In this document: positions 2,577 to 40,772 of the stretch, in pieces
Position numbering within the stretch: the first letter of the stretch is position 1
How the letters are laid out: each line of letters begins with the position of its first letter
Origin: a virus
Length of the DNA stretch: 64,000 bases
Virus record (IMG/VR): IMGVR_UViG_3300005098_000017
Span: 64,001-128,000 of that record
Strand: one strand, 5' to 3'
Program-made: the position numbers and the translations under genes
The notes under the pieces: generated by a model
Databases searched by the model: none
Seen by the model: only the letters and a program-made list of their open reading frames with translations
What the model was told of the DNA's origin: nothing

Positions 2577-2641
2577 ATCCACCTCCTTTTTTCCCACTAT
2601 AATATGCATAGAAGCCTAAATGTCAAGGTATAATTTCAAAG

Positions 2642-3331
2642 ATGAAACGAATACAACACATACTGTTATTAATAATAGTATTAATAATTATCGCTATAGG
2701 ACATCCCTTCCGTCCATTTTATGTCTTCTTCCAAGAGGGCTATAATGACACAGCATATGTGGACACTACAGATGCATGCATCCCTTGTTCAACATCATAT
2801 AATGTAACGATCTGCACAACAGCTGTCATATCATCGCTACCTATTGACACAACAGACGATACACTATGGCATGGTTACTTATTAAAGCTGTGGATAAAAG
2901 ACACCTCAGGATACACAAGCGATACATTTTATGTGAATGATACATGCTTCAGAACATTGTATCAAGTAGTACCTTGCAATATAGCACCTACATGTTCACT
3001 GGTATGGGGATACCATTTCTGGGTCATAAATCTAGATTGCATCAATATACAATATGGCATCTATGTAGGCGATGGTGATAGCGTATGTGTTTACATCGGG
3101 AAAGATATGCAACATGGACAAAAATGCGTAGCGATAAATAGTAGCACACCAGTACATCAACTAAGAGTGATAGCCGGAGATACAACACCCGTTTACATAA
3201 GTGAATTCCCTGTCATCCCATATCCAGCTTATTCGGATACGTACTGGTATGACATACGTGGAAGAAGAACACTACCGTATAGAAGTGGCGTTTATCTACA
3301 TAGAAGACGGGTTATCGTAATAATAAAATAA
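2642..3331 (+). CDS. Secreted Cys-rich protein with a T9SS/Por-type C-terminal sorting-like tail (paralog A)
   Basis: Signal peptide MKRIQHILLLIIVLIIIAIG; C-terminus WYDIRGRR...SGVYLHRRRVIVIIK. Confidence 0.75.
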   Translation: MKRIQHILLLIIVLIIIAIGHPFRPFYVFFQEGYNDTAYVDTTDACIPCSTSYNVTICTTAVISSLPIDTTDDTLWHGYLLKLWIKDTSGYTSDTFYVNDTCFRTLYQVVPCNIAPTCSLVWGYHFWVINLDCINIQYGIYVGDGDSVCVYIGKDMQHGQKCVAINSSTPVHQLRVIAGDTTPVYISEFPVIPYPAYSDTYWYDIRGRRTLPYRSGVYLHRRRVIVIIK

Positions 3332-4033
3332 TCATTTGAGGTGCACCTTCACCTTACCATCTTCTATATAAACAGTAGGTGGGGTCCCTCGAAGCCGGCG
3401 TCCTCTAAGATCAAATCGCCCTTTTAGGTAGGGAAGCCGCGGCTTCTTCTTATCATCCTCTATAATAAGACTACTTGTATCGGGCAGAACAATCCTCATA
3501 ATTTGATAAAGTGATAGATTATCATATGCAATGCACTTGCGTCCCCAAATGCTGCCTTTCGTTATATAGACACATAATGAATCACCACTTGCTAAACTAG
3601 GATATGCACTTCTGCCTATATCAATGATCCAAAGGTGATAACCCCAAACAGTACTGCATGTTGGAGCAAGATGATCTATGCAAGGCTGCACCCTCCACAA
3701 AGGTATAGATGCTGATGGACATGAATGTATGTCACAGCTATCCCAAATGGTATCCGCAGAACTATCATAGATAAAAAACTTGAGAGAGAACCCATACCAT
3801 ACATCATCAGTACTATCCGTATCAGTACCCATTGACGATATTACTTGTAGTGTACATAGATTGCGGTTGAAAGAAGCCGCGCACTTTGAACAGATGCCCA
3901 TCGTATCAACATAAGCTGTATCATTATATCCCAACTGGAATAGAACAAAGAACCACCGAGGTGGCGGAGGTGGGTCGGCAGCAACCAATGATATCCCGAT
4001 CGCTAATAGTATAATAATACTAATCTTCTTCAT
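3332..4033 (-). CDS. Secreted Cys-rich protein with a T9SS/Por-type C-terminal sorting-like tail (paralog B)
   Basis: Signal peptide ending LVAA; shares GYNDTAYVDT, APTCSxVWGYHxW and GDSxCVYI with paralog A; C-terminus RFDLRGRR...VYIEDGKVKVHLK. Confidence 0.75.
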   Translation of the reverse strand: MKKISIIILLAIGISLVAADPPPPPRWFFVLFQLGYNDTAYVDTMGICSKCAASFNRNLCTLQVISSMGTDTDSTDDVWYGFSLKFFIYDSSADTIWDSCDIHSCPSASIPLWRVQPCIDHLAPTCSTVWGYHLWIIDIGRSAYPSLASGDSLCVYITKGSIWGRKCIAYDNLSLYQIMRIVLPDTSSLIIEDDKKKPRLPYLKGRFDLRGRRLRGTPPTVYIEDGKVKVHLK

Positions 4034-4223
4034 CTTTATCTTTTTTAGATGGCATAAGCAATTTAGCTATAAGTACAATCACACCTACAATTACAACACC
4101 AATTATGCCAAATGTCCCTATCAGCGCCAATGCATCCATCTCGGGACCTGTGAATGGATCCTGAGCAAAAGCGACGTTAAAGATACCAAGTGCCCATAAT
4201 ATGTAATATAGTCTCGCCATCAT
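4020..4223 (-). CDS. Small membrane protein (signal peptide plus one TM helix)
   Basis: AFA cleavage motif, hydrophobic core IGTFGIIGVVIVGVIVLIA, charged tail. Confidence 0.7.
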   Translation of the reverse strand: MMARLYYILWALGIFNVAFAQDPFTGPEMDALALIGTFGIIGVVIVGVIVLIAKLLMPSKKDKDEED

Positions 4224-4299: not shown

Positions 4300-6204
4300 A
4301 TGATTATAAAGGTCCCACTCAGGCAAGACACAAAAACTGTTTCACAGAAAGGTTACCCTGTCATAGCGGTAATATCTGGTAATACACATTTTTATTCCGG
4401 TGGGAGATATTATATGTACGAGGTAGCTGTTGCATTATCTGAATTAGGAGCCGAAGTGCATTTCATTACGAATGTGCGTCCAAGGCATTTTGAAAAGGAT
4501 TTCAAAGATTATGATATCAGTAAAATTCATTGGCATGTTGATAGAAATTATAAAGCCGATCTACCTCCCTTAGATGCTGTTATCGGCTCCCCTCTTCATA
4601 CAGCTCTCATAGCCGTTGATCTTGCGGGCTTACATTCATGCCCTTCAATTATCATTGTCTTTGAAACACCTAACTGGTATGCAAAATATGAAGAGGATGA
4701 ACATAAATATATGCCACGAAAACCACCATTTGAGATGTTCAAGCAAGCCTTAATAGAGTGTGATCGTATTATAGCAATTAGCCACGAAGGTGCCAAACAT
4801 ATCCCCCAATGGGATAGCAGGATTCCACCAGATAAAATTAGTGTTATAAGACCCGTTGTAAATCATAAATGCGCTGATAAATATAAAAATAAATCCGCAA
4901 GAGAACGTAGTGTTACATACGTGGGTAGATTGGTGTTTAATAAACAATTTTGGGAGCTCTATGATGTTATAATGAATGATCCCGAACCATATGTATTTCA
5001 TGTTGTTACATCAACGATATCAGAAGCCGAGCGCAAAGCACACATGGGAAATGAGAAACACCCCGTCCAGTGGCATCTTAAGGTTGGTGATGACAAAAAA
5101 TTCGAAATATTATCAAAAACATCAGCCTTAATTTTACCAACCAAGTTCGAGGGTTATGGTATGCCTCCACAGGAATCATTATATCTGAATACACATACTA
5201 TTGTTACGGATCTACCTGTTTTCCGTAATGAGCATGCAATAAAGGATGATGCACACTTTGTTAAGGACATGAAAGAAATTCCAAGTGTAGTTCACAAGGT
5301 ACTTGGTAAGACATGTACACCTAAGGGACACATACCAACGATGGAGGATATGAAAAGAGAGCTTCTGCAGGTTAAGGAGATACCATTTAAGTGGCGCTCC
5401 GAAGACGATATCCTCATAAGCTTTTCATGTTGCGTCTTTAATAATGCTAAACATATAAGAGAGTGTATTGAATCAATTTATGATCATGCATATGAGATAA
5501 TCATTGTTGAAGGAGCTACCGATTGGTGGGCTAACTACTTTAAGAGTCCTACAGGTATCAGCACTGATGGAACACATGAAATAATTATGGATCTTATAAA
5601 AAATGATAGCAAGGGGGTTATAAAATATTATGGTCCCCTGCGTTTCCCTCATAAGGTACAGATGAGGCGTTATGCGGTAAATAAAATTGATAAAGAAGCT
5701 GTGAGAAGCGGGCGCCTCGTCTATTGGATCGTGGATGCTGATGAAATCTATACTGATGAAAGCATTAAAGCAATGAAACGCGCCATCCTAACGCATCAAA
5801 GAGGCATTGTTTTTCAACCAACATACAGACATCACTGGATTGATCCACGGTATGTCATAGAAGGCGGGCCATGGAGCGCGCCTCATACAAGAGTCGTCGT
5901 GTGGAATAGGAAATATGGTTACCATAAGCGTGATCAATATTATATACAGAGACATAACGAACCATTGGATGAGCAGGGCATAGGGCTTAATATAATGAGG
6001 CCAAAGTATTATGTAAGCCGCGGCTTAGGTGTATTAGTCCCTGACTGCATCGTTGACCACTATGCATATGATTATAACCTAGAAGCCAAAATGCAATTCT
6101 ATAAGGAACGTGGCGATAATGCATACAAATTAATGGTTGCTGTTATGCAATGGAAGCCTGGCAAACCATTACCAAAAGGTATTACGATTAAGCGCATAAA
6201 TTAA
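4300..6204 (+). CDS. Two-domain glycosyltransferase (N-terminal GT-B/GT4 plus C-terminal GT-A/GT2)
   Basis: SGG near the N-terminus, YVGRL, PTKFEGYGMPPQES (GT4 E-x7-E); then CVFNN...EIIIVEG...STDGT...WIVDADE (GT2 DxD). Confidence 0.9.
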   Translation: MIIKVPLRQDTKTVSQKGYPVIAVISGNTHFYSGGRYYMYEVAVALSELGAEVHFITNVRPRHFEKDFKDYDISKIHWHVDRNYKADLPPLDAVIGSPLHTALIAVDLAGLHSCPSIIIVFETPNWYAKYEEDEHKYMPRKPPFEMFKQALIECDRIIAISHEGAKHIPQWDSRIPPDKISVIRPVVNHKCADKYKNKSARERSVTYVGRLVFNKQFWELYDVIMNDPEPYVFHVVTSTISEAERKAHMGNEKHPVQWHLKVGDDKKFEILSKTSALILPTKFEGYGMPPQESLYLNTHTIVTDLPVFRNEHAIKDDAHFVKDMKEIPSVVHKVLGKTCTPKGHIPTMEDMKRELLQVKEIPFKWRSEDDILISFSCCVFNNAKHIRECIESIYDHAYEIIIVEGATDWWANYFKSPTGISTDGTHEIIMDLIKNDSKGVIKYYGPLRFPHKVQMRRYAVNKIDKEAVRSGRLVYWIVDADEIYTDESIKAMKRAILTHQRGIVFQPTYRHHWIDPRYVIEGGPWSAPHTRVVVWNRKYGYHKRDQYYIQRHNEPLDEQGIGLNIMRPKYYVSRGLGVLVPDCIVDHYAYDYNLEAKMQFYKERGDNAYKLMVAVMQWKPGKPLPKGITIKRIN

Positions 6205-37175: not shown

Positions 37176-40100
37176 ATGCCAAGGGATATAAGAGTAAGAT
37201 TCAGGCCTACGTTGGTTACCCCTCAGATAAGAGGGGGGTTTCCCACGCTGGGTGTTTTGATTATTGGTACGGCTACTGATGGCCCGACAAATGAGCCGGT
37301 TATTGTAAGGGGTCTTGAGGAAGCACAGGAGATTTTTGGCAACTTAGGTGAGGGGACTCTGCTGGAGGGTTATCATGAATTTATCACAGGTGCTTCACGT
37401 GGTGCAGACCTGCGTACTGTTGTGGGGCTTATGAGACTGGATTTCGGTGAGTATGCTAGTGTGGAGCTACCAGAGCCATCGACGGGTACAGGGCTAAGCG
37501 AGCCAATGGGTGCAACGGCGCTTACTATTAGAGCAAGATATAAAGGTGAAATATACAATATGTTTACCATATCATATAAGGCAGTAGCTGGCGGGTTTGC
37601 TGTATCTATAGTTGTGCCAGCTGAGAAAGATCCATCAGGAAAAAGCCAAGAATATGTGCTTCTTTGTGACCCATCAGGTAGTAATACAGAGCTTATAAAT
37701 AATCTTACGGAGCTGGCTAATGCTATTAATCATCATCCAGTGCTGGCACGTTGGTTGTATGCGGAGGTAAACCTTCTTGATAGTAGATATTCAACGTATA
37801 TATCCAATGGATTTTATTCGGGAGCTGGTGAGTCATTTAATGCGTGGGGTGTAGGATATAATGATACTGATAAGGTTATAGATTTTGTGAGCCGATTTAG
37901 TGGTTCGCCTAGTAGTGATGTTTTGGATTCAGGTGGTGACGATACATTAGGACAGTATCATCCTTATACGATATTTGGGACGACTCCTGTCAATGTTAGG
38001 GCCACATCACTTGACAACATACAAAATATAAGGAATTTTGGAAAACTGGCATTGTATGATGTGTCTGTAGATGCGAATACAAAGATTGCCAATTTAGGTG
38101 TCTATCCTCTTATACAGACCAAAGCCGGTGCAACAAAATTTTATCCCATAAGCGCATATAATGATTATGATGATGATGGTATGTATATTGATGTACCTAA
38201 TTATCTAAGGAATTGGGACACCCCCGCGACAGCTAAATATCTTATACCGGGTAGATTTCCTGTATCGGAGGCTGTCTTCTATATGGATGTGATTCTGAAC
38301 CCCAGCGGGGCTTCAGGGGATGTGAATTATGTCGAAACTAATATGTTCCTGCCTGTGGATGTTTATGGTGATGTATCACTAGCTAATCTTATTAATGCAT
38401 CAAGTGTTAGTGATACAAGACGGTTTAGTTATAAATGGATAATACAGACAGAAGCCGGGACGGTTTATGATAGTGGGGCATCTACTTATACAGGTTGGAT
38501 GTTGCCTCTTTTCCATTCTCCAATGTCATCTATCGGTGGATTAATATTATTCCATCAGAAAGATGGATCGCCGGTTGATGAGTTGGATACGATATTTGGT
38601 TCATGGAAATATCTCTATTTAGGTGTGCCTTCACAGGTAGGTGGATCAGCGCCTGATTGGTATTCTACGACACCGGATGCAGCTACATTAAAACTTATTG
38701 ATACAGGGGATAGTGAGAAGGTCCATATAGGTTTGGGTCCTGCATCAGCATTTTTCACGAAGACTGATGTAACGAGCCATTATGGTAATGAGACATCACC
38801 GGATGAGAATTATACTAATGCCATAAATACGGATGTAAAAGATTTTGATGGTTCATATTCAGGTAATGAGTTCAAGCTCTATTATTCAACGGATGGTTCA
38901 TCTTGGCATGAGATCCCTTTGTATTATGAATATGATGGCAAATATTGTTCTGGCCTTACATTAGAGTGGACATTTAATGGTCAAACAGATCTGGCCGCCT
39001 TAACTGATTTGAATACATTCAAGATCAAATTCTTTGATGGGATCACATGGTCCTCGGAGGATGATCCCGAGATCAAAGAAATCCAGTCGAAGTATCCATT
39101 CCTTGAGGTTGCGAAGGATACCAGCACTGGTGAATATTATCTCGTAATAGCTGCTGGAACAAGAATAAGACTAACGGGTTATACACCGAAGGTTATGTTG
39201 AAGTACCTGCCTTCGAGAGCGGCGCTTAATGACTGGTATGAGTATACTGTCTATCAGGATAGGATTGAGTTTGGTACACCTTATCCATACACAATTAAAT
39301 TCAAGGTTCATTATCTCAAGGAGTTTGTTGAGAATGTTGATTACATATATGATTCCGCACAAGGTACATTCCAGATGCTTGACTCTGAATTGATACCACC
39401 TGATAAGCTAACATTGCTGTATATGGATTATCAGTTTGAGCCTGAGTGGTTTGATACATCTCGTATCTATACATTATCAGGTGGTTCATCTGGGTTTGAG
39501 AGGGCGCGGCCTCTTGAATACTATGCAAAGTTCCGTACGGCTTTGCAAGCTATAAGCACAGATGATAGATTTGACATTATAGTGCCGAAGGGTGCTTATA
39601 TAGACACAGTTGATGAGGTATATGATGCATCTATATCTTCGACGACATATGTTAATGTAGGCTATGTGGATCTCTTTGATGAGTTTACGCAGAAACGTGC
39701 TGATGATGGCAACCCAACGATTGTTATCCTAGCAGCGGAACCTTATAAACCTGAGACAGCTATTGTAGGTTATACCCGTGAGGGTATAGCTAATTGGGTA
39801 ACAAGGATGACCGATACTACATCAATTGATCCCCGTTCGCCGGCGGGCTTAATTGCCTCTGTGACTGACAATCCAATGATGTGTGTTACTGTTGTACCGA
39901 TAGCACTTATAGCACCGGGCGGCGCTTATTACATATCGGATGGAGCTGCATTCCTTGCGGGTCTTGCTGCAAGATTCCATTATGTGCCCCGCACTGCAGC
40001 TAATGAGAGTCTTTACAACCTTGCACTTCCTAATGGTGTCAGACCTGCGTTTAGATTATCGGAGTCGCAGGTTGATGCATTGCTCAACATGCGTTACATA

Positions 40101-40460
40101 GTGTTCCACATGGGTCAGGATGGAGCGCCGCGGCTTATGAGAGATACAACACTTGCCCAGCCATTTAGTTCATTGAGTGCGCTAACCCACCTAGCTGTGT
40201 TGCTGCGTATTAAGCAGGGATTTATAAGAAGGCTGCGGCCTCATATCGGTAAGATCGTTAACGCTCAGACGAAGATGGAGGTTGATGCAGCTATAACATC
40301 CGAGTTGGCACTATGGCAGAAGAGTGGGATTATACAGCAGGCTATAGTTGATATTGATTGGGCAAGTCTTGAAGGTACATTGGGAGTATTACCAGTGCAT
40401 ATTACGATTGTGAGATCACCCATTCTGAAGGGTGTTGAAATAGATATTGTTGTGCGGTAA
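37176..40460 (+). CDS. Contractile tail sheath protein (1094 aa, large central insertions)
   Basis: IIGTATDGPTNEPV...EAQEIFG N-terminus; TIRARYKG; LSGG; sheath-like C-terminal domain. Confidence 0.9.
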   Translation: MPRDIRVRFRPTLVTPQIRGGFPTLGVLIIGTATDGPTNEPVIVRGLEEAQEIFGNLGEGTLLEGYHEFITGASRGADLRTVVGLMRLDFGEYASVELPEPSTGTGLSEPMGATALTIRARYKGEIYNMFTISYKAVAGGFAVSIVVPAEKDPSGKSQEYVLLCDPSGSNTELINNLTELANAINHHPVLARWLYAEVNLLDSRYSTYISNGFYSGAGESFNAWGVGYNDTDKVIDFVSRFSGSPSSDVLDSGGDDTLGQYHPYTIFGTTPVNVRATSLDNIQNIRNFGKLALYDVSVDANTKIANLGVYPLIQTKAGATKFYPISAYNDYDDDGMYIDVPNYLRNWDTPATAKYLIPGRFPVSEAVFYMDVILNPSGASGDVNYVETNMFLPVDVYGDVSLANLINASSVSDTRRFSYKWIIQTEAGTVYDSGASTYTGWMLPLFHSPMSSIGGLILFHQKDGSPVDELDTIFGSWKYLYLGVPSQVGGSAPDWYSTTPDAATLKLIDTGDSEKVHIGLGPASAFFTKTDVTSHYGNETSPDENYTNAINTDVKDFDGSYSGNEFKLYYSTDGSSWHEIPLYYEYDGKYCSGLTLEWTFNGQTDLAALTDLNTFKIKFFDGITWSSEDDPEIKEIQSKYPFLEVAKDTSTGEYYLVIAAGTRIRLTGYTPKVMLKYLPSRAALNDWYEYTVYQDRIEFGTPYPYTIKFKVHYLKEFVENVDYIYDSAQGTFQMLDSELIPPDKLTLLYMDYQFEPEWFDTSRIYTLSGGSSGFERARPLEYYAKFRTALQAISTDDRFDIIVPKGAYIDTVDEVYDASISSTTYVNVGYVDLFDEFTQKRADDGNPTIVILAAEPYKPETAIVGYTREGIANWVTRMTDTTSIDPRSPAGLIASVTDNPMMCVTVVPIALIAPGGAYYISDGAAFLAGLAARFHYVPRTAANESLYNLALPNGVRPAFRLSESQVDALLNMRYIVFHMGQDGAPRLMRDTTLAQPFSSLSALTHLAVLLRIKQGFIRRLRPHIGKIVNAQTKMEVDAAITSELALWQKSGIIQQAIVDIDWASLEGTLGVLPVHITIVRSPILKGVEIDIVVR

Positions 40461-40517: not shown

Positions 40518-40538
40518 GTTTTGGTATGTTGTCTTGAG

Positions 40539-40772
40539 ATGAAAGATGTGAAGATATACATTGATGATGGTATTTTATATGTGGAATTTCATGAGTTCTA
40601 CGATCGGGCCGATATATTGATTTATGATGTGAAGGGCCGGCTTATTCATGAAGGGACTGCGGCCGGCTTAAGCGTCTATACATATGACATGTCTCGTTAT
40701 GCAAGTGGTCCTTACATTGTTGTTATTTTGGTTAGTGGTAGAAAATATAGTAAGGTAGTCACATTGCATTAG
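40539..40772 (+). CDS. Stand-alone T9SS type-A C-terminal sorting-domain-like protein
   Basis: ILIYDVKGRLI...YDMSRYASGPYIVVI...YSKVVTL matches the I-Y-D/N-x-x-G...L-x-x-G-x-Y...K pattern; no signal peptide. Confidence 0.75.
   Translation: MKDVKIYIDDGILYVEFHEFYDRADILIYDVKGRLIHEGTAAGLSVYTYDMSRYASGPYIVVILVSGRKYSKVVTLH

Follow-up and report, generated by a model that had tools for sequence, protein, structure and literature searches.

Why should a phage carry, tail to tail, two genes for secreted proteins whose last residues read like a fragment of a bacterial sorting signal? The question is raised by genes A and B of an uncultured hydrothermal phage, which lie in a stretch of 64,000 nucleotides (hereafter the window) that corresponds to bases 64001-128000 of the 147,433-bp IMG/VR virus record IMGVR_UViG_3300005098_000017. 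An earlier reading of the letters alone (the sequence-only reading) took the two products for cargo of a secretion system of type IX (T9SS), exported through the host by means of their C-terminal tails. We find that the tails very probably derive from a T9SS type A C-terminal domain (CTD), and we lean, with considerable reserve, towards the reading that they still work, as a short T9SS or PorV signal; both the host T9SS and the export through it are predicted. That the pair is phage-encoded holds, because the record (147 kb) carries a terminase, a tail sheath, a ribonucleotide reductase (RNR), ThyX and an M15 endolysin, in addition to a RecA-like gene and RNase HII.

A and B are convergent paralogs, 38% identical over their full length (BLASTP, E 8e-46, far beyond chance), and the motifs that the sequence-only reading had listed as shared, GYNDTAYVDT, C-x2-C, APTCSxVWGYHxW, GDSxCVYI and KC, are all present. 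Its description of the layout was also accurate: the stop codon of A (TAA, 3329-3331) abuts that of B (3332-3334, read as TCA, the reverse complement of TGA), so that no intergenic base separates the two genes at 3331/3332. At each N-terminus two to three basic residues are followed by 13-17 hydrophobic ones and by a small-x-small site (AIG/H in A, VAA/D in B), a pattern that is, by inspection, typical of a Sec-type signal peptide, as had been proposed. The same inspection finds a basic n-region, 13-17 hydrophobic residues, a small-x-small site and no lipobox cysteine in all members of the family. The tails end as had been described, WYDIRGRR..SGVYL..VIVIIK in A and RFDLRGRR..TVYI..VKVHLK in B, each being of the (W/R)-(Y/F)-D-x-RGRR kind; in A, the linker that leads to the tail is Pro-rich and poorly conserved. 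A Sec signal at one end and a tail at the other would give both proteins the two-signal layout of T9SS cargo. Nine cysteines are found in A and nine in B, and the core domain that holds them (about 160 aa) is probably beta-rich; Foldseek searches with it against the PDB returned nothing below E 0.01 and only generic beta-sandwiches, and its matches in the ESM Atlas all scored below 0.9, and serve as leads only. Neither A, nor B, nor an adjoining 67-aa open reading frame (ORF) belongs to a family in Pfam, NCBIfam, PHROGs or PADLOC. Spanins were rejected for A and B, which have no lipobox and no coiled coil, as was an outer membrane protein (OMP) beta-signal, the C-terminal residue being a lysine and not aromatic, and as were other sorting signals, no PEP-CTERM, LPXTG or GlyGly-CTERM motif being found. 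N-x-T sequons (GYNDT and VNDT) are kept in the family, and each protein has about 10 DT/DS dipeptides (window 2735-2750, 2933-2945).

The ancestry of the tails is clearest from the cellular members of the family. An exhaustive HMMER search, which covered 1.84 billion representative proteins, found six family proteins, mostly viral. The sixth match, P0006, maps to three metagenome contigs (L005-L007) that are fragments of a bacterial chromosome, on which the 3' end of thrS is followed by clpC, by genes for a secreted protein of 410 aa, for the family protein and for a paralog of 302 aa, and by 23S rRNA and 5S rRNA. P0006 and its 302-aa neighbor both share the core domain with the phage proteins (E 1e-8 to 1e-14). 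In its full-length form the cellular protein begins with a signal peptide, has the N-terminal C-x2-C region and the core in common with the phage proteins, and closes, after a similar Pro-rich linker, with a domain of about 85 aa. The curated cut-offs are 27 bits for PF18962, 27 bits for PF13860 and 23 bits for TIGR04183; the P0006 type (L005:2-739) passes PF13860 (FlgD_ig) at 32.1 bits, and the 302-aa paralog passes PF18962 (Por_Secre_tail) at 30.5 bits. Moreover, the two cellular domains score 73 and 48 bits against an independent hidden Markov model (HMM) of the CTD, built from 29 PF18962 domains of five genomes of the Fibrobacterota-Chlorobiota-Bacteroidota (FCB) group (Ignavibacteriaceae, Calditrichaceae, Fibrobacter, Eisenbacteria and Rhodothermales), and are bona fide type A sorting domains. 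An AlphaFold2 (AF2) model of the cellular paralog has a multi-strand CTD at residues 224-300. The bacterium that bears these genes is known from 22 kb of sequence only. Its ClpC is at most 55% identical to that of any GTDB species representative and stands, in a ClpC tree, on a long unplaced branch next to Fibrobacterota; its rRNA has a GC content of 0.59-0.67 (59-61% for the 23S) against 0.33-0.47 in coding sequences, which is thermophile-like. It looks like an unplaced, probably thermophilic lineage. Its 23S rRNA gene (L005 1854-5832; L007 1562-5540) is interrupted by an ORF for a LAGLIDADG homing endonuclease (L005 4154-4669).

The phage tails align with the cellular CTDs at three blocks and at the same position behind the linker (alignments A1 and A2). 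Block 1, the motif B of CTDs, reads Y/F-D-x-x-G-R-R/K, and its D, G and R are invariant in 12 of 12 rows; block 2 (motif D) reads S-G-V/I-Y, with a tyrosine that is at least 90% conserved; block 3 (motif E) is a final hydrophobic strand that ends in a lysine, likewise at least 90% conserved. The corresponding residues of A are D204, G207 and R208, invariant across phage and cellular members, and Y218 and K229. What separates the phage tails from the cellular domains is two clean deletions, one before block 1 (NPFN..., strands 1-2) and one of about 25 residues between blocks 1 and 2 (strands 4-5). A tail of 28 aa is left, behind a linker of 16 aa (about 44 aa together), with a gap of 4-5 aa between motifs B and D, a GRR or GRK in motif B and a K/R-rich end. 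In the AF2 model of A the tail (pLDDT, the predicted local distance difference test, 70-80) has only short strands, at 202-203, 209-210, 216-220 and 223-227, the last two forming a hairpin; the models are poor overall, with a mean pLDDT of 58 for the phage protein and 53 for the cellular paralog.

A reciprocal test was made with an HMM built from nine phage tails alone, which was run against the 29 true CTDs and against 711 other C-termini, taken from long ORFs at 80 unrelated bacterial loci. The tail HMM ranks the CTDs first, with an area under the curve (AUC) of 0.953 (Mann-Whitney p 2e-17), and its top six matches are all CTDs. With its columns reversed the HMM drops to an AUC of 0.46, and with its columns shuffled (30 times) it averages 0.55 and never exceeds 0.80, so that the signal lies in the order of the residues and not in their composition. 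The matches are, moreover, co-linear within the last 100 residues of the CTDs, motif B lying near position 46, D near 78 and E at the end. When the tail profile was aligned with the independent CTD profile by hhalign, motif B only was matched (P 3.7e-4, probability 36%). On the strength of the homologs, the motifs and the ranking, descent of the phage tails from a T9SS type A CTD is very probable.

A complex of the tail with a PorV was also modeled. The mature PorV of an Ignavibacteriaceae metagenome-assembled genome (MAG; G001), which scores 256.6 bits, over the cut-off, and has a PorU gene (634 bits) upstream of it, was docked with residues 186-229 of A, alignment A2 being supplied. The complex scored 0.85, the best of three controls 0.00, with a PorV that is a stand-in from another phylum. 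A mark at the 0.85 level is reached by 58 of 80 solved complexes and by 2 of 110 mismatched pairs, counts that are only rough because the alignment supplied was self-made. The runs share at least 84% of their contacts, with a partner pLDDT of at least 74, and the confident contacts with PorV are made by motif B (203-210, with the lowest error at G207), by motif D (213-217) and by motif E (222-229). The model is a likeness, and supports binding without showing it in the real host.

The distribution of the family is patchy, across unrelated phages. The pair is kept in two sister phage contigs (96% and 93% identity), one of which (L001) carries both copies; B has orthologs of 93% identity in L001 and in P0001. 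The other (L002) carries A and a B of 147 aa (P0002; L002 9102-9545, minus strand), in which an in-frame internal deletion has removed about 86 residues of the core and left the signal peptide and the tail. Single copies occur in two further phages. One of these (L004, from IMG sample 3300021472, a hydrothermal sediment of the Guaymas Basin) has about seven genes in common with the window phage; the other (L003) is an unrelated small phage in which the family gene adjoins the packaging genes and is the sole plus-strand gene among minus-strand genes, a layout that is that of an accessory "moron", as far as gene order tells. In a tree of the family all phage copies group together, apart from the cellular ones, with a support of 99; inside this clade A, B and the pair formed by the two single copies are a polytomy. 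This topology suggests that the CTD was trimmed once, and that the split between A and B is as old as the split between the phage lineages. The sequence-only reading had called for homologs to be sought in FCB genomes and in phages: four phage lineages and one bacterium with full CTDs were found, and the GTDB species set held no relative of the family, which is also absent from 26 genomes of the phylum of G006, a MAG considered below. Word-based protein searches with the family added only close copies, and a search with the CTD region returned only the query's own cluster.

Several observations weigh against a working signal. The sequence-only reading had staked its case in part on the tails scoring above background against CTD models, and in this half the result is negative: A, B and the family members P0004 and P0005 have no match in Pfam or NCBIfam at E<=10, six-frame scans of the phage genome with TIGR04183 and PF13860 find nothing, and the long-CTD HMM gives the tails 1.7-4.0 bits, within the background of 504 phage ORFs. 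The tail is not the seven-strand beta-sandwich of about 70-100 aa, four of the seven canonical strands being missing. No PorV was found in the phage itself, no SprA, PorV or PorU could be tied to its host, and nothing beyond the shared family links the homolog-bearing bacterium to the window phage. Both A and B lack a strong Shine-Dalgarno site. At least one copy appears dispensable, because the B of L002 has lost most of its core; this copy is, to judge by its sequence, dispensable or decaying. Finally, the docking, in which PorV is a stand-in, may have passed through the model's memory of known CTD-PorV complexes. The forward scoring is a failed membership test and not a disproof of descent; the local alignments of the tails to the long-CTD HMM still fall on the correct model positions, and it was the converse search, with the tail HMM, that recovered the CTDs.

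These observations are the ground on which a vestigial tail would be argued for. In this alternative, which we hold to be rather unlikely, the CTD has decayed in the phage and the proteins are periplasmic, or fixed in the inner membrane by an N-terminal segment that stays uncleaved, and act without a T9SS, possibly on the cell wall, on the injection of DNA by a rival phage, or on the timing of lysis together with the 67-aa membrane protein. The failure of the tails against all curated and long-CTD models, the loss of two thirds of the domain and a host T9SS that is only presumed speak for it; the long hydrophobic N-terminal segment of A (16-17 aa) could be a signal anchor, and B is probably coupled to the small membrane protein, with the endolysin gene 2 kb away. 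A relic should drift, however, and the tail does not. Among the four phage lineages the mean pairwise identity is 0.29 in the signal peptide, 0.43 in the core, 0.15 in the linker and 0.44 in the tail, so that the tail is conserved as the core is, and far better than the linker next to it. When the phage proteins are compared with the cellular protein of the P0006 type, the columns of the tail are the best-kept part (0.36-0.54 identity, against 0.28-0.31 for the core). Moreover, with respect to the sister phage L001 the tail of A has nine synonymous and two non-synonymous codon changes and that of B nine and three. The tail is under purifying selection, and because it is conserved like the core and shows an excess of synonymous changes it does not behave as a decaying relic. 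The residues retained are, in addition, exactly those of the PorV-contact motifs.

Another alternative is that the tail works as a sorting signal for a PorV-like barrel system other than the canonical T9SS of Bacteroidota, in a dedicated pairing of cargo and barrel in deep-branching thermophiles. The RNR of the phage has no close cellular relative. The closest cellular relative of its ThyX (59%) is encoded by a chromosomal contig in a "Caldiserica" MAG from Guaymas (G006, B21_G15), a 1.4-Mb incomplete genome in which at least 12 CTD proteins pass the Pfam cut-off, whereas its 10 PorV-like barrels all fall short of the cut-off for the PorV equivalog; no PorU was found in it, only a faint SprA_N signal, and no member of the A/B family. 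On its contigs C156, C67, C18, C80 and C155, a gene for a PorV-like barrel (50-70 bits) comes directly after a gene that ends in a PF18962 CTD, or stands beside it at a distance of about 100-700 bp, a pairing that thus recurs in this genome. A non-canonical route would account for this combination of CTDs and barrels, several of them adjoining, with a faint SprA_N and no PorU, and would suit the long, unplaced ClpC branch of the homolog-bearing bacterium. Yet a missing PorU or SprA proves nothing in an incomplete MAG of this size, G006 is without the family and its phylum shares only 71-72% 23S identity with the homolog-bearing bacterium, and canonical PorU-PorV-SprA sets do occur in non-Bacteroidota FCB genomes such as G001; we regard such a route as improbable. 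The GC-word of the phage is absent from the contigs of the homolog-bearing bacterium, and the tetranucleotide correlation between them, 0.46, is within the background range. ThyX, the CTDs and barrels of G006 and a second CTD-like domain in the phage (see below) point, without proof, to a gene pool shared with CTD-using bacteria.

That the tail is an unrelated basic beta-hairpin, for instance one that binds membranes or nucleic acids, and its alignment with CTDs an artefact of short motifs, is very improbable: the individual motif matches are indeed short, the forward HMM scores are not significant and hhalign is unsure, but homologs over the whole protein carry CTDs at the same position, the ranking depends on residue order (AUC 0.95 against 0.46 reversed and 0.55 shuffled), and three motifs stand in the right order and end at the C-terminus.

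A working short signal is thus the reading that we favor, and the following scenario would fit it. A and B would be two old paralogs of a small accessory, moron-like, family of phage genes, whose source would be bacteria in which this Cys-rich domain is exported with a complete T9SS CTD of type A. In the common ancestor of the phage copies, two deletions would have turned a seven-strand CTD of about 85 aa into a beta-meander of about 28 aa behind a linker of about 15 aa, retaining only the parts that contact the PorV shuttle: Y/F-D-x-x-G-R-R/K of motif B, S-G-V/I-Y of motif D, and the basic motif E with its final K. The precursor would be exported by Sec and its signal peptide removed by signal peptidase I, to judge from the sequence of the N-terminus; the nine-cysteine core would then fold in the periplasm, presumably with disulfide bonds. 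Homology, the motifs and the model with the stand-in PorV suggest that the shortened CTD would next bind a PorV-type barrel of the host, or the SprA translocon, and that the protein would so cross the outer membrane. More speculatively, the tail might be cut within the variable linker, and the core released or anchored at the surface. There it might, equally speculatively, alter the infected cell, for example by blocking the adsorption of further phages; superinfection exclusion or receptor masking by the core, as the sequence-only reading also imagined, is conjecture. The fuller statement, that no natural T9SS sorting signal so far is shorter than the phage tail with its about 28 structured residues, that this tail arose independently of the short CTDs of Prevotella, and that it is used by phages of an uncultured thermophilic, non-Bacteroidota bacterium to hijack PorV and the T9SS for surface display, is offered tentatively, with rather less than even confidence.

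If the tails do work, the consequences extend beyond this locus. Reduction of the T9SS signal to one and the same core of three strands would have occurred at least twice, Prevotella and this phage family being the two cases, and this would define what PorV and the translocon need and provide a natural surface-display tag of about 30 residues. The use of the T9SS by phages would extend beyond Bacteroidota-type hosts to hydrothermal lineages. On the fuller statement just given, A and B would be the first phage T9SS cargo with a signal that standard annotation does not see. Surveys by HMM of phage-secreted proteins and of T9SS cargo would be undercounts. The orphan Cys-rich domain, which four phage lineages share with one bacterium, would become a candidate surface factor, perhaps for superinfection exclusion. 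If the tails are relics, the genes encode an ordinary exported moron of host derivation.

Table 1. Positions of genes A and B, their tails and two other features of the window
Feature	Position	Strand	Length	Description
Gene A (paralog A)	2642..3331	+	229 aa	predicted signal peptide ~aa 1-21; Cys-rich core ~23-185; Pro-rich linker 186-201; short CTD-like tail 202-229
Tail of A (aa 202-229)	3245..3328	+		motif B Y-D-I-R-G-R-R; motif D S-G-V-Y-L; motif E V-I-V-I-I-K at C-terminus
Gene B (paralog B)	3332..4033	-	233 aa	architecture as in A
Tail of B (last 28 aa)	3335..3418	-		R-F-D-L-R-G-R-R ... T-V-Y-I ... V-K-V-H-L-K
Small membrane protein	4020..4223	-	67 aa	two hydrophobic segments; highly charged K/D/E C-terminus
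Second CTD-related element	40521..40772	+	83 codons	open frame; stand-alone long-CTD-like Ig domain

The 67-aa ORF, whose end overlaps the start of B by 14 nt, is probably co-transcribed and translationally coupled with it. It is conserved at 94-97% in the sister phages L001 and L002, and its sequence would fit either a holin-like topology or a signal peptide with one transmembrane segment. A gene for a two-domain glycosyltransferase of 634 aa (GT4/GT1 and GT2) adjoins the A/B family genes at 4300-6204 (plus strand), and a link of the sequon-bearing family with glycosylation is conceivable. Upstream of A (window 2610-2641) a perfect TATAAT stands about 9 nt 5' of the ATG and there is no Shine-Dalgarno site, so that the mRNA from which A is translated may have little or no leader; TTGACA-16-TATTAT, for the leftward gene, stands on the opposite strand of the same region. 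A scan for promoters and terminators around A and B gave results near shuffle expectation, and a scan for repeats nothing relevant. The second CTD-related element of the window (Table 1) scores 23.8 bits (E 9e-7) against the HMM of 29 CTDs and is the best match of the phage-tail HMM in the phage genome outside the family; it was missed by the PF13860 and TIGR04183 six-frame scans. It lies in frame with the sheath gene (37176-40460), past its single stop codon at 40458-40460, and could be a small gene of its own (its ATG then being at 40539) or be added to the sheath by read-through.

Among known systems, the surface proteins of phage morons and of lysogenic conversion that block superinfection, such as Llp of T5 and Bor and Lom of lambda, are lipoproteins or OMPs that reach the surface via Lol or Bam. 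A and B are like them in being small exported accessory proteins, in the odd orientation of the gene in L003 and in their patchy occurrence across unrelated phages. They differ in sequence and fold, which show no relation to those of the morons, and in the predicted route, and their function is conjectural. With the type A CTD (TIGR04183/PF18962, and the related FlgD_ig, PF13860) the likeness is closer: the tail stands at the C-terminal end, behind a linker, in a protein with an N-terminal Sec signal; motifs B (D..G), D (GxY) and E (basic end) occur in the same order and reach the C-terminus; and the full domain is present in direct homologs of A and B. In contrast, the phage tail has about 28 aa (about 44 with the linker) instead of 70-100 aa and three to four short strands instead of a seven-strand sandwich, and lies below the curated HMM cut-offs.

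The closest parallel is provided by Prevotella intermedia. Whereas ordinary T9SS tails have 70-100 aa, tails of about 30-45 aa have been documented in this species only (PMC11969387). The sequence-only reading, which spoke of tails of a kind known to direct T9SS export, was thus right about the descent, in view of the homologs, motifs B, D and E, the ranking, the selection and the model, but these tails are far shorter than the ordinary ones. In P. intermedia, 48 "short" CTDs of 40-55 aa have been described, predicted to form a single three-stranded sheet that corresponds to strands 3, 6 and 7 of the long CTDs; motifs B, D and E are kept, with a gap of 1-6 residues between B and D and a preference for extra basic residues (PMC11969387, Open Biol 2025). 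Five of them have been shown to be cleaved in vivo, with glycosylated cargo, and in AlphaFold3 models they sit in PorV as the long ones do, the loop of motif B being deepest in the barrel (PMC11969387). The phage tail fits this definition (PMC11969387) in its linker and tail of about 44 aa, its deletions, its B-D gap and its basic residues. It has the same three-strand layout, with B, D and E kept and a B-D gap of 4-5 (1-6 there), it has extra basic residues in motifs B and E, and a model places it in a stand-in PorV much as long CTDs are placed. It differs in being encoded by a phage and not by a Bacteroidota chromosome, and in being equal to or shorter than 40-55 aa. Moreover, cleavage and glycosylation have been seen in P. 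intermedia, whereas the phage tail is known from sequence and a model and is likened to the short CTDs by their published description. Its origin appears to be independent, since the deletions can be placed on a long CTD that is carried by bacterial members of the family itself.

The sequence-only reading knew of no phage that employs such a strategy, but T9SS cargo encoded by a phage had already been proposed by Bellas et al. for the "Cryophage" of cryoconite holes (PMC7468147), and ORFs with T9SS sorting domains have been noted in clusters of gut crAss-BACON phages (PMC6949934). As in A and B, a cargo domain is joined in these phages to a T9SS sorting signal, on variable accessory genes, and a hijacking of host secretion is proposed (PMC7468147, PMC6949934); phage T9SS export is, in all of these cases alike, a proposal. 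The Cryophage and crAss-BACON proteins have full-length type A domains, recognized by standard annotation, on endoglucanase, GH39, PA14 and BACON cargo, whereas in A and B the signal would be minimized and is missed by the standard models, with an orphan Cys-rich domain as cargo. What is new here is a putative sorting signal in minimized form, which standard annotation overlooks and which is carried by accessory proteins of phages presumably outside Bacteroidota.

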